Positions 93 to 34,934 are shown, counted from the stretch's first letter. The stretch is 64,000 nt of DNA from Candidatus Deferrimicrobium sp. (GCA_035531115.1 DATKTP010000204.1:4155-68154), one strand, 5' to 3'. Made by a program: numbers and translations. The notes: generated by a model not told the origin, from the letters alone.

Positions 93-656
93 TTAGATAC
101 CAATACTCGTATGTTCGATCGCATAATAATATCCAAGAATTACAAGAAAATGTGGTATTCCAAATTTGCCATCTTTCCTCCAGCGACGCGATAATTCACC
201 AAAACACTTATCTCCAATGCTTACGTGCGCCTCGCGAGCTTCTCGCTTCGCCCTTGGAAATTCCTGCGGATACATCATCCCTAACCGAATCTCAATGACA
301 CGCCCACGCTCACGACTATTCTTGCCCATGCGAAAGACCGCTTGCCAGATGCGACTATTGCGTGCTACTTGGGTCAATTCATCGTACACCGGAAATCCCA
401 CTTGCGCTATATACTTCTCCTTTAAAAATTCAAAGATTCGCAGTTCTTCTTCGACTCGTTGGCTCCATTGTGGCGATCGCACCCCTAAGGTATTCTCAAA
501 CAAAGGAAGCTTCTCTAGAATGATTGCCCCTTCAATTTTTAATTGATAAGGGGTGAGAAAATGCACATTAATATAATCTTTATGTACATCTATGGAAATT
601 GAGTCAATAAATTTCCCCAGATCGATGCTGTCCTTATCCTCATCTCTGTTGCTCAA
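93..656 (-). CDS. UFC1-like E2 (UFM1-conjugating-enzyme-like) protein with an N-terminal extension
   Basis: 187 aa. By-eye alignment to human UFC1 as I remember it: 'GVRSPQWSQRVEEELRIF' vs 'GPRDRELWVQRLKEEYQSL'. Also 'IGDKCFGELSRRWRKDGKFGIPHFLVILGYYYAIE' vs '[38 protein letters not shown]', with Cys at the catalytic position. 'YPQEFP' is an E2-flap-like motif. Confidence 0.6.
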   Translation of the reverse strand: MSNRDEDKDSIDLGKFIDSISIDVHKDYINVHFLTPYQLKIEGAIILEKLPLFENTLGVRSPQWSQRVEEELRIFEFLKEKYIAQVGFPVYDELTQVARNSRIWQAVFRMGKNSRERGRVIEIRLGMMYPQEFPRAKREAREAHVSIGDKCFGELSRRWRKDGKFGIPHFLVILGYYYAIEHTSIGI

Positions 657-771: not shown

Positions 772-1041
772 TTATCCAAGCTGATCTGGCGTGCCAATGA
801 CGTAATGGTTTGTTCTATAACTGTCAATTACTTCTCTAACCGTTTTATCAGACCAATTTTGGACTATCGCGCCATCCTTTGTGGCGATTCCAACACGTTG
901 AGGCACGGGCTGAAAAAGTTGTTTAGCGGCTCGCCCACAAAAGTCTCTCATCAATTCTCCGCTTACCGCAACCACTTGCCATTTCTTATTTTCATTCGCT
1001 GCATTCTCAAAGGTTAAAGTTACAATTTCCTCTTCAGACAT
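772..1041 (-). CDS. UFM1-like ubiquitin-fold modifier ending in a single exposed Gly
   Basis: 89 aa with a beta-grasp-like pattern. 'AAKQLFQPVPQRVGIATKDGAIV' vs human UFM1 'AAEEFKVPAATSAIITNDGIGI' (from memory). C-terminus 'VIGTPDQLG*' vs UFM1 'IIPRDRVG|SC'. Sits directly upstream of the UFC1-like gene on the same strand. Confidence 0.6.
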   Translation of the reverse strand: MSEEEIVTLTFENAANENKKWQVVAVSGELMRDFCGRAAKQLFQPVPQRVGIATKDGAIVQNWSDKTVREVIDSYRTNHYVIGTPDQLG

Positions 1042-1670: not shown

Positions 1671-2747
1671 CTAAAAAAATGGGATCACAACACCCGTTCT
1701 TCTTATACATTCAACAGCTTTCATTAAATCTCCTGTCATTTTATACGCAAAGGATAGATTCCGCCACGCTGTATTATTGAAAGGTTCAAGTTCAGTTACC
1801 TTCGTCAAACATCTAATTCCTTCGTTATAATCGCCCATTGATACATAGGCAATCCCTAATAAACTCCAAGCTAAAGCCAATTTTGAATCTATTTTAGTAG
1901 CCTTTTTCGAATATTCTATTACTTTTGACCAGTTTCCCAATTGCTGATAATAAACCCCAATATTAACCAATAATAATGCATTTTCCGGACTCAGTTTTAC
2001 AGCTTTTTCATAAGCTTTTACTGTATCATTTTCTTTTCCCAACTCTCTATAGACATTACCTAAATTATTCCAGGCTTCAAAATTTTTTGGATTGACATCG
2101 ATTGCAATTTTAAATAACAATAGGGCTTCTTTTATTTTCCTTTCGTTGATTGCGGAATTCCCTAATCCAACCCATTCATCTGAATTTTTAGGATCAATTT
2201 GTCCTCCCTCCGTAAAAGCTCTTCTCATATGTTCTTTTGCGGCTTTTTCATCACCTTTATTTAGGCATGAAATAGCTAAATTGTATAATACTATCGGAGT
2301 TTCTTTACTTGATTCTTTGGGGATGACTTCAGCTGCTTTTCTCTGATATTCGAGGGCTAAGTCATATTGCCCAATTCGTTGGTATATGCCACTTAGATTA
2401 TTCCACCAAAGGGCTTGATCAGGTTCAAGCTCTGTGGCCTTTTTACAACATTTTAAAGCATCGTTTACTTTACCTAACCTTTCAAATACTATGCCAAGAC
2501 TTGACCATCCCATCGCATCGTCTGGGTACAGCTCAGTAACCTTTTTATAGTACTCGGAAGCCCTTTTGAAATCTCTCAACATCGTGTAACATGTTCCAAG
2601 ATTAAATAATGCGGATTTATTACCTGAATCAATGTTTATTACTTGTTTAAAAGTTTCAACGGCGAGCGTAATATTATTTTGGTTCATATAACTTTGCGCT
2701 TCTTTGAGTAGCTTCTCAATTTCGGGCTTTTCATTTTTATTAGTCAT
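1671..2747 (-). CDS. tetratricopeptide (TPR) repeat protein
   Basis: 358 aa made almost entirely of 34-aa TPR units, e.g. 'AWNNLGNVYRELGKENDTVKAYEKAVKLSPENA' and 'AWSLLGIAYVSMGDYNEGIRCLTKVTELEPFN'. Confidence 0.9.
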   Translation of the reverse strand: MTNKNEKPEIEKLLKEAQSYMNQNNITLAVETFKQVINIDSGNKSALFNLGTCYTMLRDFKRASEYYKKVTELYPDDAMGWSSLGIVFERLGKVNDALKCCKKATELEPDQALWWNNLSGIYQRIGQYDLALEYQRKAAEVIPKESSKETPIVLYNLAISCLNKGDEKAAKEHMRRAFTEGGQIDPKNSDEWVGLGNSAINERKIKEALLLFKIAIDVNPKNFEAWNNLGNVYRELGKENDTVKAYEKAVKLSPENALLLVNIGVYYQQLGNWSKVIEYSKKATKIDSKLALAWSLLGIAYVSMGDYNEGIRCLTKVTELEPFNNTAWRNLSFAYKMTGDLMKAVECIRRTGVVIPFF

Positions 2748-2776
2748 AATTTCTCATCACCTTTTTTTTCTAATAA

Positions 2777-3238
2777 TTATTTTAATCGCCCTAACCTCTC
2801 TCGTATAGATTCATCATCGCCCATTGCGGCCAAAAAGCGATCAAGTCCTATTGTTATCGAATGCCACTCAATTTGAAAATCCTCAAATTTCCCATGTAAT
2901 GGCATATCTGATTCTATATAAAATTCATTATCGAATACCGAAAAGGTCGTTTCCGGTAGTATGTAGTTTAATTCAAGTCCCAACCGAAACAAAGTCAATA
3001 CTTTATCTGCGGGAAAATCACTAAAGTCCATAATCAAACATTTCGTTACTATCCAATCTTCTAAATTTCGAATTTTCAACCGAAATTTCAAATCTTCATA
3101 TTGAAAAACGGCGTCAATTATGGGAACTGTCTCATTATCACCATTTTTAATATCCTGAAATTGATGATTAATTCTCATTTTCTCTAAAAATTTAGAAATT
3201 TTACCTAGGTTCACTTTTTCTCTCTCATAATTAACCAT
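2777..3238 (-). CDS. hypothetical protein (possibly YbjN/T3SS-chaperone-like fold)
   Basis: 153-aa ORF, 29 nt upstream of the TPR gene on the same strand. The fold suggestion rests only on size and a weak pattern. Confidence 0.5.
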   Translation of the reverse strand: MVNYEREKVNLGKISKFLEKMRINHQFQDIKNGDNETVPIIDAVFQYEDLKFRLKIRNLEDWIVTKCLIMDFSDFPADKVLTLFRLGLELNYILPETTFSVFDNEFYIESDMPLHGKFEDFQIEWHSITIGLDRFLAAMGDDESIRERLGRLK

Positions 3239-3500
3239 CCAATCACCTTCTTGTTTATTCCCTCCAAATTCAGGAGTTTTTTGGTGAGATATATATTTAA
3301 TGTTTTGTTTTATAAATTTATTTAAATGATATCAGCTATCGTTGAATAGAAAAAACCTATAAAAGAGCTGGGGATGTACAAAAATGAAAAAGGACAAGAA
3401 ATGGCTCGTGGGAGTGCTCGTTCTAATCAAACCATTATCTAAATTAATTATCTTTATGTGGCGGAGTGTTTTATTAAGAATTAAATAAATATTAGCAGGG

Positions 3501-3593
3501 ATGTACTCTATGGGAAAAGGAAGGTTTGATCGGGTTTTTGGCATTATCCTTATTACTTTGGGTGCTATTGTTACAATCTTCTGTTTCACGTAA
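3501..3593 (+). CDS. possible small membrane peptide (30 aa)
   Basis: ATG-to-TAA ORF 'MYSMGKGRFDRVFGIILITLGAIVTIFCFT' with one hydrophobic helix. Below the track cutoff. Confidence 0.2.
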   Translation: MYSMGKGRFDRVFGIILITLGAIVTIFCFT

Positions 3594-3617
3594 TTCCTAT
3601 GGCCCAGCATTGACCCG

Positions 3618-3731
3618 ATGGTAGGTCCCGAAATATGGGCACAATACCGAAACATTACCCTCACATTTGCCATTATCGGGTGCGTGGTAATGTCCATCGG
3701 GTTTGTGGCTACCGTCCGATCGCTGAAATAA
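3618..3731 (+). CDS. possible small membrane peptide (37 aa)
   Basis: ATG-to-TAA ORF 'MVGPEIWAQYRNITLTFAIIGCVVMSIGFVATVRSLK' with one hydrophobic helix. More plausible than the antisense 121-aa track ORF. Confidence 0.25.
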   Translation: MVGPEIWAQYRNITLTFAIIGCVVMSIGFVATVRSLK

Positions 3732-3797
3732 ATTAGCGGTATGTTCTCGATCTATAAAGGTAATACCTTGATCCAAGCATTAATCTCAATTCCTTTT

Positions 3798-4901
3798 TTA
3801 TATATCTTTAATTAATTTTAAATAGGATATCGATATTCTTGTTTTGTTTTGAGCGGCAGCAAGGATTTTTTGATTATCTAAAGCAGAGATTTGAAATTCA
3901 TTCTGAATGAGGTTAGCGAGATTGACGATTAAAACTTGATAGGAGCAATTAATTCCGAAATTCATTGAAATAATATGCTGTAAGGTCTTTGTTTCTGCGA
4001 ATGTAAATGCTACTGCCGTTTTTTTTGTGATTGTCTTCACTTCAATGAGTTGAATCGTCTTTAAATATTCACAGTTAATTTGATAATCAATAATTATTTG
4101 ATTGAACCTGCCATCAGAATTATCACTAAGAATATATGGAATTGCTTGAGATAGCGGAAGCATTTCTCCATTAATATCTATATGTGAAACATGAGAACCG
4201 GGGGGTAGGAAATGAAAATAATCGGTAACCTTTTCTTGTTCATCAACAGTAAGGTCGCGTTCATTCTTTAGCGTTGGCTTATATTCTTCCACTAACGGGC
4301 TAATTTCATCCCATTGACTCATATTCTCATTTTCAGATTGGTTTTCACCAATTTTCATTCTTTCTAAAAAAATCTTCTGCAATTTTCGAAGCAAAACGGG
4401 ACAATTTACATCAATACAATGTTGTGGGATCGCAGGATACGATTTTAGTTGGGCTCGAATGTTTTCGGGTGGATTACAAAAGAAACTAAGAAGGTCAAAA
4501 GATATATCGGCACCTGTTCCCGGTGGTCGACTTTTTAGTAGATTCTCGGAGTAACTGTTATCTTCTTGTGGAATTTCAACTCCGTCCTTTCCCACTAGGA
4601 AATATTGCCCCCGCCGCCATACCATCCTATATTCTGGATTAAATTCAACTCTATCCTTTCTTACTGCCAAACTAAGAGATTGTAATGAATGGATTACTTG
4701 ATATGGAATTAGAAGAGCGTGTGGACGTCCGTAATACACTTTTACAAGTGTGGCACTCCAGGGAATTAGAAAGCCTACTTCATTTACCTTTTCACTGAAT
4801 TCTTGAGAGAGATAGCGATATGCTATAAATTCTCCAAGATCGCCTATTAGTCCTGATGGTATTTTGAAATTGAACTTTACTGTGATTCTATTCCGCTCCA
4901 T
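3798..4901 (-). CDS. hypothetical protein with weak PD-(D/E)xK-nuclease-like elements
   Basis: 367 aa. N-terminal 'GDLGEFIAYRYL' and C-terminal 'IQLIEVKT' resemble the helix-1 Glu and E-x-K elements of restriction-endonuclease-fold proteins. The match is weak. Confidence 0.55.
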   Translation of the reverse strand: MERNRITVKFNFKIPSGLIGDLGEFIAYRYLSQEFSEKVNEVGFLIPWSATLVKVYYGRPHALLIPYQVIHSLQSLSLAVRKDRVEFNPEYRMVWRRGQYFLVGKDGVEIPQEDNSYSENLLKSRPPGTGADISFDLLSFFCNPPENIRAQLKSYPAIPQHCIDVNCPVLLRKLQKIFLERMKIGENQSENENMSQWDEISPLVEEYKPTLKNERDLTVDEQEKVTDYFHFLPPGSHVSHIDINGEMLPLSQAIPYILSDNSDGRFNQIIIDYQINCEYLKTIQLIEVKTITKKTAVAFTFAETKTLQHIISMNFGINCSYQVLIVNLANLIQNEFQISALDNQKILAAAQNKTRISISYLKLIKDI

Positions 4902-5092
4902 AATAATTGATTGATTACCTGAATTTTTTTAATATATTTAATTATTTAGGTAAGATCGCTCTTGTAGATTTTTTCAATCCAACTTCTGAAAAAATTTCAC
5001 CCATTGAAAAAGATACAACCCAATTTATCTTTTATTAGAAAAATTAAATAAATTAGTAGAAATTTGATATTATATTACAAATTTTTCCAATA

Positions 5093-5575
5093 AAGAGGGG
5101 AATAAAAATAAACTCAAGGCACGAAAAAATAAAGATATATCAAAAAAAGCTTTCATACCCATTTTCAGAGGAAAAAGCATCAGAAATTATCGATATTTAT
5201 TGGATTTATGCGGAGAATTACGCTATTAACTACCCAGCTTCCACTCCAAGAAGTGGAAAGTGGCTTGTATTCGTAAATAAAAGTAAGATAGACGAAGTAT
5301 GGAAAAAAATAAAAATAGCGACAGAGAAAGGAGAATTGAGTGATTGTGCAAAAGTTTCCACGGCATGCCCGAACTCTAATGCGCAAGATCCGGATAAATA
5401 TGTAATTTGTATTTATACATACGATTCCGATGATATTGATGATGTGAGAAGAGTTCGTGAAAAATTGAGAGATTTAGGTATTACCCATAAAATACCTTAT
5501 AAAACAGATAACGCGACAATGGAAGGGAATTATTTGGTTCGCGGTCATAAAAGAATCAGTAAATATTTTGAATAG
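5093..5575 (+). CDS. DUF1917 (C11orf68/Bles03-like) domain protein; start codon undetermined
   Basis: The conserved pattern 'STPRSGKWLVFVNKSKIDEVWKKIKIATEKGELSDCAKVST...YVICIYTYDSDDIDDVRRVREKLRDLGI...IPYKTDNAT' lies largely upstream of the track start (TTG 5336). The frame is open from 5093, but no ATG/GTG/TTG occurs before 5336. Confidence 0.7.
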   Translation, partial: KRGIKINSRHEKIKIYQKKLSYPFSEEKASEIIDIYWIYAENYAINYPASTPRSGKWLVFVNKSKIDEVWKKIKIATEKGELSDCAKVSTACPNSNAQDPDKYVICIYTYDSDDIDDVRRVREKLRDLGITHKIPYKTDNATMEGNYLVRGHKRISKYFE

Positions 5576-5661
5576 ATATTATTTAAAAATCTTAATGAGA
5601 GAATAGGCAAATATTTAAAACAGTAGGGAGAAGTAGAATAGACAAATTAGGGAGCGATTTT

Positions 5662-6687
5662 ATGTATTATTGCAATATTTGTAAAAAGGAGATCACGAGA
5701 GGAGAATTCTTTTATTCAATGGATAAGTTTGGTAGGGCCCTTTGCAGAGCGCATCAAGAAGCGGAAAGAAGATCTCAAGGGATCTCAGGTCAAAATACAG
5801 AACCGGCAGGTGTAATGGAGGAGCTAGAACCGTCCGAATCTGCTTCTGAAGTGATAAGTGCCTCAGATGAAACCACTAACGATGCGGCGCCAAAGAGCCG
5901 TTGGAGATCGCTCGGCAATACCTTTGTAAAAATGGGCAAAGGGATCGTAAAGGGCGTACGGAAAATTGCGGATTCTTCAAAGAGACGCACTCAAACGCGT
6001 AAATGGAAAGAATCGATTCTTCGTCGGATGACAATAACTCAATTGGAACAGCTCTGTTTTGAGAAAGGAGTCAGTACCAAAAAGAAGGTATTAGAGGAAG
6101 ATAAACGCTCTGATGAGTTCTATTGGAAAGAGGTAAAATGTTCACAAGGCGATCTCGTTGCCCGATTGAAGAGCAAAGTCCCATTAGATATCATAATTTC
6201 CTTCGCTGAGCGGAATTATGTAAATATAAAAGATATCCTTGTCGATATACACCGCACGGAAGCCGCATGGGAATTAAAAGCCCTCGCTGAGAGAAGCAAT
6301 AAAAATGGGGGTAGTATATTACTAGAACTTGAAAAGATAATACGAGAATTCGTTCCTTTGCGCCGATATGATCAAGAACTGTATTACCAAGATACGCTTG
6401 CCCAGTTTTTGCGATCTAAGTTTCATGATACGGAGATAGAAGTCTCTCGCGGTTCTACGCGCCCTGATATTGTCGTGAAAGGCATCGCTATTGAGGTCAA
6501 AGGGCCGACCAGTAATAGAGATTTAGATACCATTGCTAATAAATGCCTTCGATATAGACGATACTTCCCAAGCGGGTTGATATGTGTCCTATTTTCTGTC
6601 AATGTTACTCCACAGTACTACGAAGATTGGTTAAAGGCAATGCAGGAGACGCACCCAGACGTGAGAGTCATAAAGATTCCCCTCTGA
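5662..6687 (+). CDS. zinc-ribbon + PD-(D/E)xK nuclease-like protein
   Basis: 341 aa. N-terminal 'CNICKKE...CRAH' Zn-ribbon. C-terminal 'FLRSKF...EIEVSRGSTRPDIVVKGIAIEVKG' gives the E...D...E-x-K restriction-endonuclease-fold motif. Confidence 0.7.
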   Translation: MYYCNICKKEITRGEFFYSMDKFGRALCRAHQEAERRSQGISGQNTEPAGVMEELEPSESASEVISASDETTNDAAPKSRWRSLGNTFVKMGKGIVKGVRKIADSSKRRTQTRKWKESILRRMTITQLEQLCFEKGVSTKKKVLEEDKRSDEFYWKEVKCSQGDLVARLKSKVPLDIIISFAERNYVNIKDILVDIHRTEAAWELKALAERSNKNGGSILLELEKIIREFVPLRRYDQELYYQDTLAQFLRSKFHDTEIEVSRGSTRPDIVVKGIAIEVKGPTSNRDLDTIANKCLRYRRYFPSGLICVLFSVNVTPQYYEDWLKAMQETHPDVRVIKIPL

Positions 6688-7040
6688 AAGAATTGATAAT
6701 TAGTCTGTTTTTATCTTTACACCTTTTGCATTTTTCTTTAGTTTCTTTAAAATTTCCTTACTCCTAGCGTCTAGTGGATTATCCTGAATTTTTAAAATAA
6801 CTAGATTCGAAAGCTGGGCAAAGGACTCGATAAATCTGGAACGGGATCTTGTGGTAGTACTCTTCGCCTCGGTAGGCTTGAGAAAAAAATAGCTATATTA
6901 GGCGATGATGCAAAAGATAATATTTTAACCTATTTATAACAAGAATAAAATATTTAGAAGGCAAAAAATAGAAAAAAAATATTAAAACTATTTAATGAGG
7001 GAGACCTTATCTACGATTCTTCAGTAAAAATCTAGTAAAT

Positions 7041-8135
7041 CTAACTTTCACTAGACATTTCAACTTTGGAAAGCAAATCATCTAAAATAGTTTGTGATTT
7101 AGAACTATTATTTTTATTTTTATTGGACTCAGCATCAAAAGTAGTAGATTTATCAGAAGATACCTCCGGCTTGATTGAATTAGTGGCAATATCTGTTTTT
7201 TGATTTTCAGGAATTTGGATATTATATTCCATTGAGACAACTGCTTTTTCAGCCATATGTTCTAAATGAGTTAGAAATCTATCTAGTTTGCTTTCTGACC
7301 ATAATTCATTAACTATTGCTTCTATATTATAATTCAATTTGACATTCAAGCTATTTTCTGAATCTAAGCTGGGTAATAATTTTTCAACAGGTGCTGGACT
7401 TTCCTCTGAAAACTTTATTTCAGTATTAGTATCGGGGGAGGGCACTTTAGTTTCTATTTCTTCCTCATGAATAGCGTTTTCTTCATGTTTTTCATTTTCA
7501 GAGGAATGATTAGCAGGATTTTTGAAATCTATCAATTCAAATGAGTCACCGAATGCTCGGATTAATCTAGCTTCAACACAAAGATCAATCCAAAATTTAG
7601 TAGTTACATCGAAGAAGTCATCGTCTTTTATTTCTATATCGGACTCAAGCAATTTCAATCGTAATTTCTCAGAAAGCCCCTTTAAAGTACCTTTACCATC
7701 TGGTTCATTTACAACTAATCCTTTTATAAGCTCGGGAATCGGTTGAGATTCAATCAATGCTCTAAGATCAGTACTTGCATCTGCCCCAAAAATCCATTGA
7801 TGGATCATATTACGTGTCTCCAATTTCCGGTCATAGTAAATTGTCTCACCACTTTTTTTGCGTGTAAGGAAATTTAAATTCACTAAGTAGTTCAATATTC
7901 GTGTAACAGTTTGAGGTCCTATACCTGACTTATCTGAAATTTCTTTTGGGTTCATAGCGCGTTTTTCCTTGCCTAAGGTCATTAATATGGTTTTTGCCTT
8001 GGGCCATGTTATAGATTTGGTCGAAGGTAATTTAATTTGAGATTTTATGGTGGTTTTTTTTATAGCCTTGGTAGAAGTACCACCGGAACTCCCACCAGCA
8101 GGCTGTGTAGGTAAAGTTTGTGTAATTTTTGACAA
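7041..8135 (-). CDS. winged-helix DNA-binding protein with acidic/Ser-rich C-terminal half
   Basis: 364 aa. 'MNPKEISDKSGIGPQTVTRILNYLVNLNFLTRKKSGETIYY' is a typical wHTH. Divergently oriented to the AAA+ operon. Confidence 0.65.
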   Translation of the reverse strand: MSKITQTLPTQPAGGSSGGTSTKAIKKTTIKSQIKLPSTKSITWPKAKTILMTLGKEKRAMNPKEISDKSGIGPQTVTRILNYLVNLNFLTRKKSGETIYYDRKLETRNMIHQWIFGADASTDLRALIESQPIPELIKGLVVNEPDGKGTLKGLSEKLRLKLLESDIEIKDDDFFDVTTKFWIDLCVEARLIRAFGDSFELIDFKNPANHSSENEKHEENAIHEEEIETKVPSPDTNTEIKFSEESPAPVEKLLPSLDSENSLNVKLNYNIEAIVNELWSESKLDRFLTHLEHMAEKAVVSMEYNIQIPENQKTDIATNSIKPEVSSDKSTTFDAESNKNKNNSSKSQTILDDLLSKVEMSSES

Positions 8136-8329
8136 TTTTATGTCACCTAAATATAAAAAAGATATCGCCTATATTTAAATGTTATTGCCTACTAAACCAA
8201 AGTATTGCGCGGTACTATGTTAATAATATAGGACAAAAGTTTTAAAATTGTTTTTTTTGTTAAATTTCGAAGAATTTTTATTTATAATTCTAATAATAAT
8301 TATAGCGTATTTGAGTGAGATGATAGAAT

Positions 8330-9439
8330 TTGTCTCCAGATCCTAAAGAAAATATTAAAAGAATGATTTTAGAAGCACAGAAAACAGAGAAAATACCAGA
8401 GAAATTATGGTATTTAGATTATTTTATAAGAGATCCATTTGATATTCAAGATGAAAGTAAAATAAAAAATTTCTATCACAATCAAGAGGAGATTCAAGAG
8501 GAAATAGCAAAAGATATTGGATATGCTATTAAAGGAACGATAGGTAATATTGCAATTGTCGGAAATCAGGGGATGGGAAAAACAATTTTTTTCGACTTAT
8601 TAAGTTTAGTAATTTCTGATTTAAAACAGACTAATAGAGAGTTTGAGGCAGTAAAATTTGTAACATGCCGGGAGATTGATGAGGAAAATATTAGTAATTT
8701 CATGGATAATAATGTACTAGTCTTAGATGATTGTACAGTTTTTGAAGAAGCAATCTTTTATATACAACGACTTAGAAAAACGAATCATTTGATCATTTCA
8801 TTCTGGAATCCAATATCCTTAGAACCAATAATTTATGAAGAAAAGTATAGATCAATTTTTGATAAACTACTCTTTTTGAAACCAATCGAAGATCTGGATC
8901 AGTTAATTCTTTTTTTAGAATTAAGATTAAAATTTGTAAATTCTACAAAGAATCTATCCGATTTGATAAATAATGATATGCTCTCTTTGATTCTAGAATA
9001 CTCAAAAGGAATACCCCGTGCTATCCTTGAAATTTGTCAATATATTTTTGTAGAAAAATTTAGGAGGGGGGTAAGCAGTATTAAAGAAGAATTTATCAAC
9101 CTTTGTTTAGAAAATCTGGGATACAAACTTTCTGGAGGAGAACTTCCGAATGCTATTAAAAAAACGGCCAAGGAAATTTGTAACTATTATATACAATATC
9201 AAAATTATATCAAATCAACCGACATTAAAGAGGGAATAGGAAGAGATATATCTACTATAAATAAACATTTAACTATACTTGAAAGTCAAAAATTAATCGA
9301 AAGAAGCGAATATGATGGGCGAGGGAAACATTTCCGCCCTAAATTTGCATTATTTGTTCAACTTACAGGGTATAGAGATAAGAAAGGAATTATAGATGAG
9401 ATTTTAATTAAACTTAAGACAATTAAAAGCCAATTATAA
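8330..9439 (+). CDS. Orc1/Cdc6-like AAA+ ATPase with C-terminal winged helix (divergent)
   Basis: 369 aa. Walker A 'GNQGMGKT' and Walker B 'VLVLDD'. Lid/sensor-2-like 'SKGIPRAILEIC' (compare Cdc6 'GDARxAldLL'). C-terminal wHTH 'INKHLTILESQKLIERSEYDGRGKHFRP'. Confidence 0.7.
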   Translation: MSPDPKENIKRMILEAQKTEKIPEKLWYLDYFIRDPFDIQDESKIKNFYHNQEEIQEEIAKDIGYAIKGTIGNIAIVGNQGMGKTIFFDLLSLVISDLKQTNREFEAVKFVTCREIDEENISNFMDNNVLVLDDCTVFEEAIFYIQRLRKTNHLIISFWNPISLEPIIYEEKYRSIFDKLLFLKPIEDLDQLILFLELRLKFVNSTKNLSDLINNDMLSLILEYSKGIPRAILEICQYIFVEKFRRGVSSIKEEFINLCLENLGYKLSGGELPNAIKKTAKEICNYYIQYQNYIKSTDIKEGIGRDISTINKHLTILESQKLIERSEYDGRGKHFRPKFALFVQLTGYRDKKGIIDEILIKLKTIKSQL

Positions 9440-9458
9440 TATATAGTGATGAAATTAT

Positions 9459-10430
9459 ATGACAAGGAATACCAGGTATGCCTATTTTTTTAAAATTCGT
9501 TATAAAAAATTAGATGATGAAAATTTTTTATTGAATCAATTAAATCAATTCGAAAAAGTATCGTATGAAAAAATAAAACAAAAAAGATTATTAGATAGAA
9601 ATACCGGACCGGTAAATTCACTATTCGATTTTACACATTGGCCAGAATATCACGCGATCGAAGCAAAATTTATCTTATCACGTAATACAACTAATATCGC
9701 CACGACGATAAGCTTCTATAACTCAATAATTCCTAAGCAGTTTCAGCATTTTAATTATTCCTCGGAAAAAAGTGTAATACCCGAAAAATTATATGATAAG
9801 AGTTTTGCTTCTCTTATATTCTTCACTTCTCAGAAGATGATATGTGTATTATTTATTCATGATGTTTTTGCTACGGAACAAAATGCTCAAAAAATTTTTG
9901 ATAAATTATTTATCAAAAAATTAACAGGAGGCAGTCTAAGTTCCCCACAAAAAAGGTTACAAGATAATACTCAAAATAAAGCTCAAGATGATAAATTATA
10001 TGAATTATTAAAGTTTAAAGAGGAAGACAAAAAAAAGTTGGCATATTATATAGAAGAAAATAATCTAGGATATGTATTTACCTTTCAAAACACCGAAGGT
10101 GGGGTAAAATCACATCACACGGCCAAAAAAGGAAATATAAAGAAAACAGAAAAATGGGAAAAATTACGAGAAGAATTTGAAAAAAATCAATGGGATAGCC
10201 TCGGACTTGGGATTGGAAAAGAAGAAGATCCGAACTATAACACATTATTTTATGAGAGTAAGCCTAAATCATGTGTAACATTTGATTTTCTGGATAAAAA
10301 TAAAGAAGATGAAATAATAAATTCTTTAAATATATTCATCTCTCATTTACAAAATTCTAAAGAGTTCCAAATTTCACATAGGAAGAAGCAAAAAGGAGAT
10401 TTACGAAGATGGGTTGGTTTTATCGGATAA
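9459..10430 (+). CDS. hypothetical protein (no recognisable domain)
   Basis: 323-aa ORF starting 19 nt after the AAA+ gene on the same strand. Confidence 0.6.
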   Translation: MTRNTRYAYFFKIRYKKLDDENFLLNQLNQFEKVSYEKIKQKRLLDRNTGPVNSLFDFTHWPEYHAIEAKFILSRNTTNIATTISFYNSIIPKQFQHFNYSSEKSVIPEKLYDKSFASLIFFTSQKMICVLFIHDVFATEQNAQKIFDKLFIKKLTGGSLSSPQKRLQDNTQNKAQDDKLYELLKFKEEDKKKLAYYIEENNLGYVFTFQNTEGGVKSHHTAKKGNIKKTEKWEKLREEFEKNQWDSLGLGIGKEEDPNYNTLFYESKPKSCVTFDFLDKNKEDEIINSLNIFISHLQNSKEFQISHRKKQKGDLRRWVGFIG

Positions 10431-10491
10431 TAATTATCCTTAACTGATTAATTACTTAATTAATTAGTTAATTTAAGAGGGATTCGAATTA

Positions 10492-12297
10492 ATGCCACAA
10501 AAACAAAAAATACAAGAAAAAAAGGAAGTTACAAGTAATAAGATTCAAAATAAAAAGTTTTTCTCAAAACCTAAAATTCTTTTAATAGATTTGCCTCCTT
10601 CTGTCTTTGATAGACTCCAAGAATCAGGGTTTAATGTAGTTAAGGGGACATTCGGTAGCCGTTATCAAGTGGAAAAAAGTTCTAATTATTTTCCAATTTA
10701 TATTGATATTGAATTGCCAAATTTTGAAGAACAAGAAATTATATTTATTGATTTAAAAGAACAAGAAATATGCAAATCTCCCAAGGGAGAAAGATTTTCA
10801 CCTTCAGGAGAAATTGGTATGTGGGCAAAATGCAATTTTGGTTATATTAATCCACGTCCTCTTGCTATGCGTATAGTCCGCGATAGTTTTAATCGAATTT
10901 TAAACTATGGAGGCATTTTCGTACTTTTTATATATCCACCTACTATACAAAAAATTAAAAAGGGAAGGGATGTTGAGAACTTTTATGGTTTTGAATTAAC
11001 TGATTCCGAGGATTTGGAAATAAATGATTTATGTTTCTTGAATTGTAGTGATATGCTTGATATAAAAGTAGCTAACGGTAAAGAAGTGAAAGTATTAGAT
11101 TTAAATCCATCATTTAAGTATATATTAAAAAAATTCATGAATGATTTCATTTATGGTGTGATTTTTAATATTAAACCCTATTATGAGGAAGAAGCTGAAT
11201 TTATTCCCCTCTTATTAAATAAATATAATTTTATTATAGGGGGTATTTTAAAACTAAAAAAAGCGGAAGGTTTCATTGTGATTTTGCCACAACTCACAAT
11301 TGAAAAAAAGAATGACTTAATTTATTTATTAGTAACTCAAGCATTACCTGAAATGAGTCCTTCTCTTTTTCCTTTTCATGAGGGGGATAAATGGATTAAG
11401 CGCGGAGACTATAACTTAAAAACGATTCAGACCTTAGAAGATGAATTAATTAAATTAAAAATCGATTATGATAAAAGAATAAATATTATAAAAGATAAAA
11501 TTAACAAGCAGCGAGAAAAATTCAGATTTCTTTATGGATTAATCACAGAAACAAATGCTAAATTAGTTGAATATGTTAAGACCGGTTTTCAAGTTCTTGG
11601 ATTTGGAGATGTCCGAGATATTGATAAAATAGCTGAAGGAACCAATCCATCCATAATAAGACAAGAAGATATCCAAATTCATGATTTAAGTCCAACTCTT
11701 TTAATAGAAATTAAAGGAATAACTGGTAATCCCACCGATGAAGACTGCCTTCAAGTAGTAAAATATATACCAAGGAGAATGAAAGAATGGCAACTGACTG
11801 ATGTAAAGGGGATTACTATTATTAATCATAAGAGGCATATACCCGCCCTGATTAGAGGTGAAGCTTTTACAGACCAGCAGATTCAGGATGCAATTCATCA
11901 GAATATACTACTTTTAACGACATGGGATTTATTTAAATTAATAAAAGGCTTCATAGATCATAATTGGAAGCTTAAAAATATCCAAAATCTATTCTATGAA
12001 ACCGGTAAAATATCTCTATTACCGAAAAATTATATATTAATTGGTAAAATCGAAAAAATTTGGAATCAAGTCAACGTATATGGAGTCAAAATAACTGAAA
12101 ATATTGTTATTAAAATTGGAGACCATTTAGGATATATAATTGATTCAGGATTTTTAGAAGAAGATATTGCTTCACTTCAAATAAATAAAATGGATGTTGA
12201 AGAAGCAAAATTGAATGATCAGGTTGGAATAAAGACGATTTATTCAGAAGGAAATCTTAAAATAGGAGATAGCGTTTATAAAGTAAATAAATGTTGA
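10492..12297 (+). CDS. multidomain protein: N-terminal alpha/beta region, coiled coil, PD-(D/E)xK nuclease-like core, C-terminal beta-barrel
   Basis: 601 aa with GAGGG before the ATG. Coiled coil 'TLEDELIKLKIDYDKRINIIKDKINKQREK'. Nuclease-like 'GFQVLGFGDVRDID...EDIQIHDLSPTLLIEIKGITG'. The C-terminal 'IGDHLGYII...VGIKTIYSEGNLKIGDSVYKV' resembles a translation-factor domain-II type barrel. Confidence 0.7.
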   Translation: MPQKQKIQEKKEVTSNKIQNKKFFSKPKILLIDLPPSVFDRLQESGFNVVKGTFGSRYQVEKSSNYFPIYIDIELPNFEEQEIIFIDLKEQEICKSPKGERFSPSGEIGMWAKCNFGYINPRPLAMRIVRDSFNRILNYGGIFVLFIYPPTIQKIKKGRDVENFYGFELTDSEDLEINDLCFLNCSDMLDIKVANGKEVKVLDLNPSFKYILKKFMNDFIYGVIFNIKPYYEEEAEFIPLLLNKYNFIIGGILKLKKAEGFIVILPQLTIEKKNDLIYLLVTQALPEMSPSLFPFHEGDKWIKRGDYNLKTIQTLEDELIKLKIDYDKRINIIKDKINKQREKFRFLYGLITETNAKLVEYVKTGFQVLGFGDVRDIDKIAEGTNPSIIRQEDIQIHDLSPTLLIEIKGITGNPTDEDCLQVVKYIPRRMKEWQLTDVKGITIINHKRHIPALIRGEAFTDQQIQDAIHQNILLLTTWDLFKLIKGFIDHNWKLKNIQNLFYETGKISLLPKNYILIGKIEKIWNQVNVYGVKITENIVIKIGDHLGYIIDSGFLEEDIASLQINKMDVEEAKLNDQVGIKTIYSEGNLKIGDSVYKVNKC

Positions 12298-12445
12298 ATG
12301 CAGTTAATAATTGATTTTAAAAAATTAACTTACGGTAATAATTCCGATCATATTTTTATTCTCACGAAATAGTTGAACCTTTAAAAATAAGAATTTAAAA
12401 TTAGAGAAGTAAAATTTTGTAAAAAAGAGAAAAATAGGGAGTTGA

Positions 12446-14866
12446 TTACTTCCCAGGGGAAACTTCCTCGAGGATTTTGGGAACGACGATTTTATCCTTG
12501 TATTGGCTGATGAATTCATAAATGGGATTGCGCCAGTAGCCGGGATCGGGATACATGCGGTTCTTGAAAGTGTTGGGACTCGGGATTTCGGGTGAAAGTT
12601 CTTCGCCTGCTTGTTTTTTCCGCGCCCGGATCTCCAGAATTTTCTCTTCTTGGAGGTTTTTAGGCAACATCTGAAAATTCTTAAACTGATAACCGAAGAT
12701 AGCTCGCCCTTGGGTCGAAGATCGAATCTCGTCAGCAATGCCCCCAGTTCCGCCTGTTTCAGATCGTACGGCTTCAGAAGCTGGGATTTCGCCTTCAATT
12801 TCGACATGGTCTCCTGTTTGCTCGGTGTTTACCACTTTACCACGATGTTGGGTGATGATAGTCATAATGGTTCCCATAAATTCAGCGGGCGTTTTTAGAT
12901 CAATGCGTAAAATAGGCTCGAATAATGCAGGATTTGCAGTTAAGAAGGTAATATTCAAGCCTGAAAAGGTCATAACAAATATTTGAGCAGAACGCGTATG
13001 GGAAGGATCTTCATGAATTGTTGCATCTGTAATCACAACTTTGATCCCCATAGCTGGCTCTTTTGCAAGGGCTGACGAAAAGACAAAGTCTCTAAAAGTT
13101 CCGATGATATATCCTTTAATCCGATCTAATCTCTGAACTCCAAGTGTCCCATTTACTAGGATATTCGTACCTTCAATAGCCCAAATTCGTCTTGCTTCTT
13201 TTTTATCCCAGCCTGCATCTCGTAAAAAGGCAGCCCGATCCTTCTCCTCTTGCATCTCTTTGACTTTTCCATCCCTAATTAGTTTGATGGTCTCTTCATT
13301 CAATGGTTCCATATACATTTTCAGTTTATTGTGGCCTTCTGAGCATTTCGTATTGATTTCTATGCCTTTATTTAAAGTGGTTTCATGGTAGACTGTAATT
13401 GGAGTCCCCACCTTAATCGGAATCTCATCTTGGATTCGTTCGATGAGAATTTCAAGTTGAAGGGGATCGATACCGCTCAGAATGTATTCGCCTGATTCCT
13501 CATTCTTCCGAAAAGTCGCGGTAGGGTCGGCAAGTACCCATTTTCTGACTACATCGCCGAGTTTCCCTAGATCCTTGGGATCTTCGGGTTTTATACTGCG
13601 GCTCACGACGGGATCTGAGACATAAAGAATTTTTTCAAATCCTGGAATCTCATCCTTCATCTCAAGGGCCACAAAAGTTTCTCCAGCTGGTTGTATATCC
13701 GGTAATTCCATTGCAAATAAATTCCCTGCGGGAACTTCATCTACTGGTAACAGGCTATCTATTTCCATAACACCTAATCGTCGCACACGTGCCGTTCGTT
13801 TTGCATTTAATAAGTAAATTTCATCCCCTTGCTTCAAGGTTCCACTCCAAATCCGTCCAATAATCGTCGGTCTTTTCGATTTTGGATGAATAAAAATTTT
13901 CGTAATCATCCCTAAGAGTGGTCCGTTTTTATCTACATTAATCAGGGAGTATGCCATGTATTTCTCTGGATCATCCTTAATGGTTGCGGGATCTTTAATA
14001 TCTAACCCCTGCTTGATATCGCCACTCCATAGTTTCAGCATTCGGTATTTTTGAGCCTCCAGCGGGCTTGGAAGATGCTTAATGATTACCTCAAGTAAAG
14101 CTTCGTCTAATGGTAAATTCTTTTTTAACCATTTGATCGGCTCTTTCGTATTTTCTCTAATAGCTTCCGCATATTTTTCCAAGACTAACTTTGCATTCAT
14201 ATCCTTTTGTTTTAATTGGGGAATAGTGAAAGCCCACCCATCTTTTGCGGACCCAAAAACGACATGTCCGAGATCGGGGTTGAGAATCCATTTCTCTTTA
14301 AAGGGCTCTGGAGCAGCCTGCTTTATCTGTACATTAACCTCCTGGATAATTTGCTGAAATTGCTGAATAATTTTATCAGGTGGTAATTTTAACTCCATTA
14401 TTAACCGGTCGACTTTATTTATGAATAGAATAGGTCGACACCATTCTTCTCCCACGCTGAGACCAATATTTGTAATCGTTTGTGTCATACATCCTTCTAA
14501 AGCATCAACCAGAATAACCGCTCCATCACTCCCGCGTAGAGCTCTGGATACTTCTCCAGTGAAGGAGATATGACCTGGAGTATCGTTGATCTCCAGCAAA
14601 TAAGACTTCCCTTCGAATTCATAATTCAGCAAAGCGACACTTGTGAAAATTGTAATGCCCCGTTCCTGCTCCTCATCATCATAATCAGTTAAACGGCGCT
14701 CGCCTTCATAATCATGGCTTAAAAGCCCTGCCCGTCCCATCAAATAATCACACGCAGTGCTTTTTCCATGGTCAATATGCGCCGTAATTGAGAAGATTCG
14801 CCGTAATTCTAACGGGTGCGATTTAATCATTTTTTGAATTTCTTCTACATTCTTTACTTTGACCAT
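12446..14866 (-). CDS. divergent elongation factor 2-family GTPase (aEF-2 paralog-like) with C-terminal extension
   Basis: 806 aa. G1 'AHIDHGKST', G3 'DTPGHISF', G4 'NKVD'. The domain IV loop 'IHEDPSHTRSAQI' departs from the canonical diphthamide loop 'HEDAIHRGxxQ'. About 45 extra C-terminal residues. Confidence 0.9.
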   Translation of the reverse strand: MVKVKNVEEIQKMIKSHPLELRRIFSITAHIDHGKSTACDYLMGRAGLLSHDYEGERRLTDYDDEEQERGITIFTSVALLNYEFEGKSYLLEINDTPGHISFTGEVSRALRGSDGAVILVDALEGCMTQTITNIGLSVGEEWCRPILFINKVDRLIMELKLPPDKIIQQFQQIIQEVNVQIKQAAPEPFKEKWILNPDLGHVVFGSAKDGWAFTIPQLKQKDMNAKLVLEKYAEAIRENTKEPIKWLKKNLPLDEALLEVIIKHLPSPLEAQKYRMLKLWSGDIKQGLDIKDPATIKDDPEKYMAYSLINVDKNGPLLGMITKIFIHPKSKRPTIIGRIWSGTLKQGDEIYLLNAKRTARVRRLGVMEIDSLLPVDEVPAGNLFAMELPDIQPAGETFVALEMKDEIPGFEKILYVSDPVVSRSIKPEDPKDLGKLGDVVRKWVLADPTATFRKNEESGEYILSGIDPLQLEILIERIQDEIPIKVGTPITVYHETTLNKGIEINTKCSEGHNKLKMYMEPLNEETIKLIRDGKVKEMQEEKDRAAFLRDAGWDKKEARRIWAIEGTNILVNGTLGVQRLDRIKGYIIGTFRDFVFSSALAKEPAMGIKVVITDATIHEDPSHTRSAQIFVMTFSGLNITFLTANPALFEPILRIDLKTPAEFMGTIMTIITQHRGKVVNTEQTGDHVEIEGEIPASEAVRSETGGTGGIADEIRSSTQGRAIFGYQFKNFQMLPKNLQEEKILEIRARKKQAGEELSPEIPSPNTFKNRMYPDPGYWRNPIYEFISQYKDKIVVPKILEEVSPGK

Positions 14867-15072
14867 AATAAACCGTCCTGTTCTAATCTGTTTATTTTTT
14901 AAATAAGCGTCAGAATAACTTATAAAATCTTATTCTTTTTCTTAAAAAAAAGGTCTAATCTCACCGTGGTAGCGTTTCCACCATCTTTTAAAACCTTCAA
15001 CTATTTTCAGAAGAGACAAAATTTAAAGTTTATGGATTGCTATAGATCAATTTACTAAGTTTATTTAGATTT

Positions 15073-15942
15073 ATGCTCTTAAATAATATGGAAATTATAA
15101 CAATGAAAATTAAACAAGTTACTGAAAAAAACATTACTCTCACCCTTCCATCAAAACAGCGATATTTGGGATTCATTTTTGTAATTCTCGGATTATTAAT
15201 CCCGCTTCTTATTTATATTTTCAATGGTCATCAAATAATATTGGTGATCGGCTCACCTTTAGCCACAATTCTCTTGAAAATAAGCATCGCTAGTTTTTTG
15301 GGTTATCTTTTTATACAAATTGCAAGTATTTACTATTTCTTTTCAATTAGGAACAATATGACTGCTTATGGGCAGATTATCTTATTAGGTTTAAATATTG
15401 TTGGATATATTGCCTTATATTCCACGATTTTTCTTTTTTCTTCATTTATTATCACCGGAATTTATTTGCTTACGCATTTTAAAACCCTGAATTTCGATAA
15501 AACCACTTCTCTTATTTCCTATCATGAACGTATTTTTGCCCTATTTTATACGAGTAATACCATTCCATTTTCAGAAATCAATGAAATTGTGGTGGAATAT
15601 AAACCAAGATTAGGATTCCGGCAGAAAAAAGGGAATCTGCATCGGGTAAGATTGTATTTTCTTGAAAAAGATCCAGGGATCGCGGATATCCCGACTGATG
15701 ATGAAAAAGAAATAGATACTGTTTTGTTATACCAGCCGCAAATATTGAGAAAAACGCTGATTCATAAACCATTCCTTATTGATTCTTGTTTTTTTAATTT
15801 TAAAGGTTATGAAATGACACGAATTAGTCAATTATTGGAGCAGCTGATACCATTAATTGGATTTTCTTGGTATGCTGACAATATACAGAATAATATTATT
15901 GAAAAGAAATTTAAAGCAGTGAATGTATCTGAGAAAAGCTAA
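15073..15942 (+). CDS. hypothetical membrane protein
   Basis: 289 aa with several hydrophobic helices in the first ~130 residues. Confidence 0.6.
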   Translation: MLLNNMEIITMKIKQVTEKNITLTLPSKQRYLGFIFVILGLLIPLLIYIFNGHQIILVIGSPLATILLKISIASFLGYLFIQIASIYYFFSIRNNMTAYGQIILLGLNIVGYIALYSTIFLFSSFIITGIYLLTHFKTLNFDKTTSLISYHERIFALFYTSNTIPFSEINEIVVEYKPRLGFRQKKGNLHRVRLYFLEKDPGIADIPTDDEKEIDTVLLYQPQILRKTLIHKPFLIDSCFFNFKGYEMTRISQLLEQLIPLIGFSWYADNIQNNIIEKKFKAVNVSEKS

Positions 15943-26451: not shown

Positions 26452-26830
26452 GATCTGGTATGAGTAGAGTAGGCCCTTTTCTGTTCTGGAATTTCAATTG
26501 CTTGAGATTCCTTGACGGTATCAATCTATGCGCCCTACCCGGTCCTCGGCTAGGCTCCTCATTGGACGCTATTTGGGCTTGCTCCCACGACCTTGAGCTG
26601 TTTCAACGATTCCATGCATCTCTTCGGCGGGTTAGCTCATCCAATATCGCTAAAGGACTTCTCGAATTGCTTCTCAGCCGCCTCATCATCATCTAATGCA
26701 TGGGCGTGTCATTTCTGATCTCAGAGAAAGACTCTCGCCTTGTGGCTATAGCCACGCCGTTGCCTAGGAGGGAGAAGGGACCTTCCTCAGACGACCTTCG
26801 TCCGGCAACCGTCCTTACTCTTACCAGATC
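26452..26830 (-). ncRNA. rnpB: RNase P RNA (archaeal type A-like)
   Basis: GC-enriched block. The minus strand reads '...GTCTGAGGAAGGTCCCTTCTCC...' (CR-I GAGGAAAGUCC-like) and '...CCAGAACAGAAAAGGGCCTAC...' (CR-V ACAGAA plus the P4 3' strand, with a bulged U as in bacterial P4). The termini pair as a long P1: 5' GATCTGGTAAGAGTAAGG (26830-26813) with CTCTACTCATACCAGATC (26469-26452). Confidence 0.85.
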
Positions 26831-33218: not shown

Positions 33219-33323
33219 TATAAAGAATTTGTGGTAAAACAGGAAAAAATCATAAACTTAAATAGTCAGGACTTTCAAAATATATATGGATATAGCGGAT
33301 TTATTCCCAAAGAAAGGAATCTC

Positions 33324-34571: not shown

Positions 34572-34934
34572 ACAAAAATAATATAATTATATTTTTTGCA
34601 TACATATCCAGGTTATCAATTTTATCAAGTTTGTAGCAGATTATGCTACCCACTTAACATCAATTGTTCTTACGAAGTTTGAACGAGAATCCTTATTCGT
34701 ACAGGCTGAAACCCGTAGCCCCTATCAGCTAGCGTTCCGAAGAACCATTGCTGAATACTAAAATGAAGAAGGACTTGTTCACCATTGCATCTTCCAGTGA
34801 AAAAGAAAATTCAATGGACGCCCTATAAATGAGATGCTGTTCTACAACATCTCTAACTTTTTAAAAGAAAAAGCCTATTTAAAGACCACGGAAAACATAA
34901 TCATTATCAATTTGCAGAAATATGAGTTGACAAA

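Follow-up and report, generated by a model that had tools for sequence, protein, structure and literature searches.

A widespread, previously unnamed nuclease family with a candidate single-gene defence role, represented at an archaeal locus

END nucleases join a sensor and a nuclease as modules of one polypeptide, with an inactive EndoIII as the accessory domain (PMC12191111). The gene considered here, gene 3 of a locus at positions 7041-12297 in a 64,000-nucleotide stretch of DNA (hereafter the window; GCA_035531115.1, DATKTP010000204.1:4155-68154), encodes a protein of 601 amino acids (aa) which, judged by its sequence and structural model, appears to be a stand-alone sensor-nuclease defence gene of this kind with a new domain architecture. 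As in type IV Mrr-like and END nucleases (PMC12191111), a restriction endonuclease (REase) fold is predicted together with non-catalytic recognition domains in one polypeptide, and the gene 3 family shares with them a defence-island location, the lack of a cognate methyltransferase, and a patchy distribution by horizontal transfer. It differs from them in the domains around the nuclease, a flavodoxin/glutamine amidotransferase (GATase)-like domain and a barrel resembling domain II of EF-Tu, where the described enzymes have inactive EndoIII, SRA, PUA or winged helix-turn-helix (wHTH) domains. No Pfam or PADLOC model of those systems matches gene 3, which is known by sequence and model, and END nucleases are regarded as an analogue of gene 3, not as the same family.

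In the window, gene 3 is preceded by two co-directional genes, gene 1 and gene 2, and a further gene encoding a wHTH protein is divergent from these (Table 1). A first-pass annotation had described this layout, with gaps of 19 and 61 nucleotides (nt) and a divergent 364-aa wHTH gene, and had suggested that the three co-directional genes form an immune system. The positions of the open reading frames (ORFs) were as described. The immune system of three genes was not borne out, as genes 1, 2 and 3 co-occur nowhere outside this genome, which leaves such a system unsupported. On balance, gene 3 is probably a single-gene defence module of a mobile family, with gene 1, gene 2 and the wHTH gene being adjacent ORFans and not conserved partners.

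Breadth of the gene 3 family

By sequence, gene 3 is a member of a widespread, previously unnamed and horizontally mobile family of predicted nucleases of ~590 aa. At least 167 homologues were found, nearly all of them full length, with 34-44% identity among the 120 listed. The listed homologues are annotated as “hypothetical”, with one “protein gp37”, and their sources include Methanophagales, ANME-1, Halobacteriota, Desulfuromonadales, and Planctomycetaceae. A pattern-seeded scan of GTDB with one genome per species identified 53 loci of the gene 3 type in both domains of life, in Halobacteriota and about ten bacterial phyla. The taxa with gene 3 loci comprise Methanophagales, Methanothrix, Planctomycetota, Verrucomicrobiota, Acidobacteriota, Pseudomonadota, Actinomycetota, Cyanobacteriota, Ignavibacteriota, Caldisericota, Myxococcota, and others. 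Cultured carriers are Noviherbaspirillum sp. ST 5-3, Chitinimonas sp. JJ19, Dyella flava, and Actinomadura soli.

Remote full-length copies with 22-29% identity reside on plasmids of Synechocystis PCC 6714, Klebsiella, and Serratia; at the DNA level, no homologue of the Klebsiella copies was found in complete E. coli genomes. In viral collections, the family was found in one of 2.9 million IMG/VR contigs and in one of 50,697 phage records, the latter being a phage-labelled 7.5-kb contig.

No model in Pfam, NCBIfam, PADLOC or PHROGs matched gene 3 above threshold, nor did any in Pfam, NCBIfam or PADLOC match the family members scanned. PADLOC-DB 2.0.0 returned zero matches for gene 2, gene 3 and five gene 3 homologues, and searches of solved structures by phmmer and by profile with gene 1, gene 2 and the gene 3 family yielded nothing significant. 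The first-pass annotation had likewise recognised no named system, and the PADLOC scans gave no system match. A description of the gene 3 family was not found in the literature; the defence databases used extend to 2023 only, so a name may already exist.

Domains and predicted active site of gene 3

The AlphaFold2 model of the gene 3 protein, based on a 72-sequence alignment, has a mean pLDDT of 89.9 and a pTM of 0.59, the latter indicating uncertainty in how the domains are oriented to one another. All four parts previously proposed from the sequence, an alpha/beta N-terminal domain, a coiled coil (a long helix in the model), a nuclease core and a barrel, are present in this high-confidence model (Table 1).

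The predicted PD-(D/E)xK nuclease domain contains the motif EDIQI...LLIEIKG at aa 392-409. Its conservation among homologues, on which the original assignment depended, is high. D393, K408, K424 and R455 are invariant, E406 is kept in 96%, and E392, Q421, Y425, N445 and H446 in at least 94% of the family (72-120 sequences). All of these residues are kept in the plasmid homologues at 22-29% identity, including the Klebsiella copies at 22%. In the model, the core (pLDDT >90, aa 350-500) is made up of a helix (355-368), two strands (394-396 and 402-409), a second helix (416-433) and a third strand (438-445), an alpha-beta-beta-alpha-beta order which places D393 at the first core strand and ExK on the second. 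The predicted arrangement agrees with the core of the superfamily, alpha-beta-beta-beta-alpha-beta with the motif on strands 2 and 3. Structural matches in BFVD include several proteins named “Restriction endonuclease” or “type IV Mrr” (E 2.5e-4 to 2e-3), with low template modelling (TM) scores for the nuclease domain. The computed conservation and fold suggest that gene 3 carries an intact PD-(D/E)xK active site, which would be catalytically active.

The residue order D393, E406xK408, Q421xxxY425 resembles that of HsdR/RecB-type nucleases, for which we take D...ExK...QxxxY to be the characteristic motif, and the Pfam family HSDR_N_2 weakly matches three of 72 family members. The likeness does not extend to whole profiles, as an hhalign comparison of the gene 3 family with the HsdR N-termini of neighbouring genes was not significant (probability 0.3, E 0.2). 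A specific kinship with HsdR/RecB was dropped after this comparison, and gene 3 is therefore assigned to the PD-(D/E)xK superfamily only.

Foldseek results for the full-length protein were dominated by the C-terminal barrel, and the N-terminal domain was therefore modelled separately (pLDDT 93.9, pTM 0.91). Its best matches in the PDB are lin1909 (3fij), the GH42 trimerisation domain, PabA, and GMP synthase, all of them weak (E 4e-3 to 3e-2, TM ~0.38). The invariant or near-invariant residues D33, N48, Y58, N77, E80, Q81, E82, D87, D120, R122, E198, K244 and Q267 are acidic or polar, and several are found at strand C-termini, where folds of the flavodoxin/GATase type usually bind their ligands. 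Within aa 22-300, no Cys or His was present among the invariant or >=90% conserved columns. A catalytic class I glutamine amidotransferase was ruled out because the Cys-His-Glu triad is missing; the likeness is weak and at the level of the fold.

The sole match of the helical linker, to the coiled coil of BCR, was not significant (E 0.11), and in the model the long helix of this linker may serve as a dimerisation or coiled-coil element.

The C-terminal barrel was earlier likened to domain II of translation factors, and the top 50 Foldseek matches in the PDB are indeed all translational GTPases (EF-Tu, IF2, SelB, eIF5B or aIF2-gamma; E from 2.5e-6, probability 0.91-1.0). Sub-threshold matches to Pfam GTP_EFTU_D2 occur in 23 of 72 family members (best E 2.8e-4), and the family profile aligned with EF-1alpha aa 253-313 in the PDB (E 0.75). 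Gene 3 has no GTPase domain and is therefore not a translation factor. The combination of a GATase-like domain, a PD-(D/E)xK nuclease and an EF-Tu-domain-II barrel is undescribed for a nuclease within the databases and literature searched.

Convergent with gene 3 is a gene for an EF-2/EF-G-type GTPase, which NCBI labels only “GTP-binding protein”. It may be an EF-2 paralogue because it is longer than typical archaeal EF-2 and carries this vague label. The sequence of its GTP_EFTU_D2 domain is unrelated to the gene 3 barrel.

As a working mechanism, the gene 3 protein would dimerise through the long helix, and its PD-(D/E)xK site would cleave invading nucleic acid, most likely DNA. The acidic/polar pocket of the N-terminal domain, the EF-Tu-domain-II-like barrel, or both, may be the sensor or substrate-recognition element that licenses cleavage.

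Genomic surroundings of gene 3 homologues

The gene 3 family has no fixed partner. Its members are mostly monocistronic or located within unrelated defence operons, and many have no adjacent co-directional gene. Gene 1, gene 2, the wHTH protein and two upstream ORFs gave no tblastn match in 65 other gene 3-homologue loci. When the neighbours in 66 loci were clustered, the only recurrent ones were type I restriction-modification (R-M) genes, with HsdR at eight loci, HsdM at seven and HsdS at six.

Defence genes are concentrated next to the homologues. PADLOC models gave 469 matches for 132 near ORFs (two on each side of the homologue, 38 loci) versus 35 for 132 far ORFs (>=6.5 kb away at the same loci), numbers which are inflated by redundant R-M models, unequal residue counts (49.0k versus 39.7k) and naive ORF calls; the contrast is still clear qualitatively. 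The near matches include MTase_I (n = 7), REase_I (n = 4) and Specificity_I (n = 4), and type I R-M matches among the far ORFs were zero. Pfam families in the near set are led by ResIII, SWI2_SNF2, T1RH-like_C, N6_Mtase, HSDR_N, and Methylase_S. The defence-like setting noted at the outset for the window thus has its counterpart in the homologues, which were found in defence islands. A single-gene immune module is probable because the relatives of gene 3 are usually alone among anti-virus genes.

Members of the family appear to insert beside or inside other defence operons, a context that is observed directly and best exemplified by the order hsdM-hsdS-X-hsdR. In L039, HsdM-HsdS-g3-HsdR (g3 denoting the gene 3 homologue) was verified with Pfam and has overlapping or <=20-nt junctions; L018, L023 and L012 are arranged similarly, and the order in L024 and L045 is HsdR-g3-HsdM-HsdS. 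Junctions of this close kind also occur in L018, L023, L024 and L045. The homologue is thus found between hsdS and hsdR at about four loci (L039, L018, L023, L012), four more adjoin hsdR, and the window copy does neither. Other neighbourhoods are more diverse. L001 has DISARM DrmA/B/C upstream and a PDC-S11 candidate plus an OLD-type ATPase downstream; L063 has a MmeI-like enzyme and the HEPN protein ApeA; L065 has Fic, RadC and HATPase_c_3; L066 has Nmad2/3 and PIN; L037 has SNF2, a 2OG-Fe oxygenase and a MmeI-like enzyme; and L006 has a PLD nuclease. In L061, the copy on a Klebsiella michiganensis plasmid directly follows pifC-pifA near an Abi gene, and the neighbours in L002 and L062 are toxin-antitoxin genes.

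At two of these loci, both of them bacterial, the stop codon of the homologue is overlapped by another ORF. The one in L001 (9791-10948, 385 aa) is that matching the PADLOC candidate PDC-S11 (E 6e-12). The one in L063 (9721-10701, 326 aa) is unannotated and does not cluster with it.

The enrichment of R-M genes among the neighbours also suggests a more specific version of the defence module, namely a restriction endonuclease that is either solitary or, like type IV enzymes, dependent on modification; the barrel, the N-terminal domain, or both, would recognise some property of the DNA, for instance a modified base or an end, and PD-(D/E)xK would cut. Most loci have no cognate methyltransferase beside gene 3, sensor and nuclease would share one polypeptide as in END nucleases (PMC12191111), and the names of the BFVD matches point the same way. 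No modified-base reader fold of the SRA, PUA/EVE, YTH or DUF3427 type was detected, however, the barrel is of the translation-factor type, and neither Mrr_cat nor any other REase model in Pfam matches above threshold. We hold this version as a tentative possibility.

The nesting in hsd operons invites comparison with PrrC. In EcoprrI, the prrC gene occupies the same slot, between hsdS and hsdR, and a subset of gene 3 homologues shares this position and could be translationally coupled there. By this analogy, the family would be a guard of type I R-M, silenced by the R-M complex and activated upon phage inhibition, cleaving tRNA or translation-associated RNA recognised by the barrel. The overlapping junctions of the four loci with hsdM-hsdS-X-hsdR order are consistent with it, as is the EF-Tu domain II fold of the barrel, given that this domain of EF-Tu binds tRNA at its aminoacyl-acceptor end. 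Yet type I R-M is present at only about eight of 66 loci, and most copies, including that of the window, are far from any. Unlike PrrC and RloC, gene 3 lacks both an ABC-type ATPase and the nuclease motif of PrrC, and neither the window protein nor 72 members showed similarity to the ATPase or anticodon-nuclease domains of PrrC/RloC. PD-(D/E)xK enzymes are, moreover, mostly DNases, and a barrel fold by itself is no proof of RNA binding. This guard of type I R-M is therefore very unlikely; its broader form, a PrrC-like guard of an R-M or other defence operon which cleaves tRNA or ribosome-bound RNA by way of the EF-Tu-like barrel, is scarcely less so.

Rather unlikely, too, is a function outside defence, whether selfish or in the maintenance of mobile elements, or as a nuclease of DNA repair or recombination, with the defence neighbourhood reflecting shared integration hot spots. 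Copies on plasmids, on one IMG/VR contig and on one phage-labelled contig fit such a function, as do the integrase domains among the neighbours and the presence of some chromosomal copies among housekeeping genes. Against this, gene 3 homologues are embedded in R-M operons, where their stop and start codons overlap those of the neighbours, PADLOC matches drop steeply with distance from gene 3, the family is very rare in viral collections, and its patchy taxonomic distribution is untypical of repair genes.

Several observations weigh against a single-gene defence module. The homologues in L064 and L004 are among housekeeping genes, and the nearest flanks of the window copy are the EF-2-like GTPase gene and unannotated ORFs, with no recognised defence gene adjacent. 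The low TM of the BFVD matches, the non-significant HsdR comparison and the inflated near/far counts belong here as well. Genes 1 and 2 may be ORFans partly because their archaeal lineage is poorly sampled, and a local functional coupling of genes 1 to 3 is possible because they share the lowest GC content and GC content at third codon positions (GC3) and have no oligo-T run in the spacers as called.

Genes 1 and 2, the divergent gene and the islet

None of gene 1, gene 2 and the wHTH gene is a conserved partner of gene 3; all three are ORFans specific to the lineage. Scans of the four proteins and the two upstream ORFs against Pfam, NCBIfam, PADLOC and PHROGs gave only the MarR-type wHTH above threshold.

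Gene 1 had been described as an ATPase with Walker A and B motifs, a Cdc6-like lid and a C-terminal winged helix, too divergent for a true Orc1/Cdc6 protein. The motifs were located (Table 1), the lid and wHTH matches being sub-threshold. The lid region (aa 192-260) matches the ExeA-like model TIGR03015 (E 5.3e-7, below the curated cut-off), and weak wHTH matches at aa 276-336 include the CasR/Csa3 wHTH. PADLOC gave generic wHTH matches only for gene 1 and the wHTH protein (CasR/CARF/Csa3, E >= 1.8e-5). The Orc1/Cdc6 models scored far under their cut-offs (TIGR02928, 12.4 versus 181.3 bits; NF001625, 14.5 versus 501) and aligned with aa 43-118 only, the weak Orc1 match having an E of 0.011. 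A word-seeded search of 5.8 billion protein clusters recovered gene 1 itself and no relative, and the PDB, plasmids, phages and IMG/VR gave no match. ORB-like repeats were absent from positions 2500-15500, where just short two-copy AT-rich matches occur. These scores, together with the lack of homologues and origin-like repeats, rule out a bona fide Orc1/Cdc6 initiator, including the conserved Orc1/Cdc6 beside an origin that gene 1 might have proved to be. Assignment to the STAND NTPases is likewise unsupported, as NB-ARC (20.0 bits versus a cut-off of 23.5, E 4.6e-4) and NACHT (19.9 versus 26.7, E 7e-4) are sub-threshold, with neither sensor repeats nor an effector domain. Gene 1 shares with Orc1/Cdc6 and STAND proteins a P-loop, Walker A/B motifs, a helical lid and a C-terminal winged helix within ~360 aa, and differs from them in its sub-cut-off scores and in lacking homologues, origin-like repeats and sensor or effector domains. 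It is best described as an ORFan, putative P-loop NTPase with a lid and a C-terminal wHTH, either an AAA+ protein of the ORC/Cdc6-ExeA type or a minimal STAND-like module.

Gene 2, for which no domain had been recognised initially, has none in Pfam, NCBIfam, PADLOC, PHROGs or the PDB. It matched only itself in the word-seeded search of the 5.8 billion clusters. An exhaustive HMMER search of 1.84 billion representatives added two short proteins, P0130 (86 aa, 56% identity) and P0131 (110 aa, 46%), both aligning with the C-terminal ~90 residues (aa 226-316). The sole locus recovered for a gene 2 relative is L058 (metagenome contig Ga0315285_10021000), where a 114-aa ORF (5855-6199) matching these residues adjoins an apparent rRNA operon, with no gene 1 or gene 3 nearby; it suggests a small mobile or lineage-specific domain and not a full-length gene 2 family.

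In the wHTH protein, a winged helix of the MarR/ArsR type is located N-terminally (aa ~47-104), and the long C-terminal half is acidic and Ser-rich and of low complexity. In Pfam, it matches MarR_2 (27.1 bits versus a cut-off of 27), MarR (25.2) and HTH_IclR (23); an ArsR/SmtB match in NCBIfam is under its cut-off. Its 90% cluster has two members from one organism.

Table 1. Positions of the genes, their predicted parts and other features of the window
Feature	Positions	Strand	Length or residues (aa)	Description
Divergent wHTH gene	7041-8135	-	364	ORF
Region between wHTH gene and gene 1	8136-8329			194 nt, AT-rich
Gene 1	8330-9439	+	369	ORF
Gene 1, Walker A	8561-8584		78-85	GNQGMGKT
Gene 1, Walker B	8714-8731		129-134	VLVLDD
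Gene 1, wHTH recognition helix	~9251-9304
Gene 1-gene 2 spacer	9440-9458			19 nt
Gene 2	9459-10430	+	323	ORF
Gene 2, C-terminal segment	10134-10406		226-316	Aligns with P0130 and P0131
Gene 2-gene 3 spacer	10431-10491			61 nt
Gene 3	10492-12297	+	601	ORF
Gene 3, N-terminal domain	10555-11391	+	22-300	Flavodoxin-like/class I glutamine amidotransferase-like alpha/beta fold, large beta insertions
Gene 3, helical linker	11392-11547	+		~34-residue helix at aa 310-343, then a short helix (model)
Gene 3, predicted PD-(D/E)xK nuclease domain	11548-12006	+	353-505	From conservation and predicted fold
Gene 3, E392-D393	11665-11670	+	392-393	Catalytic candidates
Gene 3, E406-x-K408	11707-11715	+	406-408	Catalytic candidates
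Gene 3, Q421xxK424Y425	11752-11766	+	421-425	Conserved, as are R429, N445-H446 and R455
Gene 3, C-terminal barrel	12019-12291	+	510-600	EF-Tu/IF2 domain II (“translation protein”) type
Small ORF at window start	93-656	-	187	No Pfam match at E <= 1e-5
Small ORF at window start	772-1041	-	89
ORF with LIEVKT motif	3798-4901	-	367	No family match
ORF with partial Bles03 match	5336-5575	+	79	PF08939, E 2e-9
ORFan with nuclease-like motif	5662-6687	+	341
EF-2/EF-G-type GTPase gene	12446-14866	-	806
RNase P RNA, archaeal	26458-26824			159.7 bits
R-M-like cluster	31407-36803			Three ORFs

The three co-directional ORFs are not products of chance, since the observed ORF length far exceeds that in shuffled AT-rich DNA; in 300 shuffles of positions 8200-12400, the longest ORF averaged 86 codons with a maximum of 143, compared with 606 observed. 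Some starts differ between gene callers. Others place the gene 1 start at M12 (position 8363, giving 358 aa), and NCBI starts gene 2 at a TTG at 9531 (299 aa). With the NCBI start, the spacer between genes 1 and 2 becomes 91 nt and contains T7 and T6 runs, and the operon link between them is therefore weaker than the 19-nt gap implies. Neither spacer as called contains an oligo-T run. Promoters of the wHTH gene and of gene 1 are presumed to be in the region between them, and genes 1, 2 and 3 are probably co-transcribed at this locus.

Positions 8-12 kb are the most AT-rich part of the window. Genes 1 to 3 have a GC content of 0.285-0.289 and a GC3 of 0.20-0.225, both below those of all 20 other genes measured in the window (GC3 0.25-0.43). 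The stretch of genes 1 to 3 with the wHTH gene (8.3-12.3 kb) is an AT-rich accessory islet of an archaeal chromosome. A second assembly, probably of the same organism, has the identical gene arrangement and is the only other assembly found with these genes. In the search for a strain without the islet, no locus was found for the variant wHTH protein P0125. Credible flanking direct repeats that would mark integration were absent from positions 2500-15500, no integrase is encoded within the islet, and tRNA genes are 7-9 kb distant.

The pairing of an ATPase with a nuclease is common grammar among defence systems, and a three-component immune system made of gene 1 (ATPase-wHTH), gene 2 and gene 3 (nuclease), with the divergent wHTH protein as regulator, would fit it. 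The genes are co-directional with short gaps free of oligo-T runs as called, their near-identical low GC and GC3 suggest joint acquisition, and the arrangement recurs in the second assembly. These features are outweighed by the wider comparison. Neither gene 1 nor gene 2 has full-length homologues, none of the 65 other gene 3-homologue loci holds a gene resembling gene 1, gene 2 or the wHTH gene, and the NCBI start of gene 2 places T runs between the first two genes. The gene 3 homologues are complete, conserved and mostly solitary, which argues that the nuclease does not need gene 1 or gene 2. We thus consider the three-component system unlikely. By guilt by association, genes 1 and 2 may instead constitute a separate lineage-specific accessory or defence pair.

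The window contains a run of seven genes without annotation that spans 3.8-12.3 kb and includes the locus itself. The 341-aa ORFan in this run starts with a CxxC element like that of a zinc ribbon, and the motif RPDIVVKGIAIEVKG near its C-terminus may point to a second PD-(D/E)xK nuclease, for which there is a weak match to a PHROG annotated “nuclease” (E 0.012). The LIEVKT motif of the 367-aa ORF is also C-terminal. The match of the 79-aa ORF to the eukaryote-type Bles03 domain is confined to the final ~57 positions of that domain, and the ORF appears to be either a remnant or a gene whose start was mis-called. A second R-M-like cluster, farther along the window, comprises a helicase of 603 aa (ResIII/DEAD/Helicase_C), an ORF of 482 aa without a known function and a methyltransferase of 622 aa (Eco57I/N6_Mtase/TaqI_C). 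An RNase P RNA of archaeal type identifies the window as archaeal; the public record label, “Candidatus Deferrimicrobium sp.”, is bacterial, and the contig was probably mis-binned in a metagenome-assembled genome.

The locus holds a caution for the annotation of defence systems, as tight spacing and an ATPase/nuclease grammar in a single genome are insufficient to define a system of several genes; of the three considered here, two are ORFans. If confirmed, gene 3 defines a new candidate single-gene defence family that is missing from Pfam, NCBIfam, PADLOC and PHROGs and that crosses the boundary between archaea and bacteria. The family is directly testable because cultured carriers and Klebsiella plasmid copies exist, and its nesting in type I R-M operons provides a handle on layered, “back-up” immunity.

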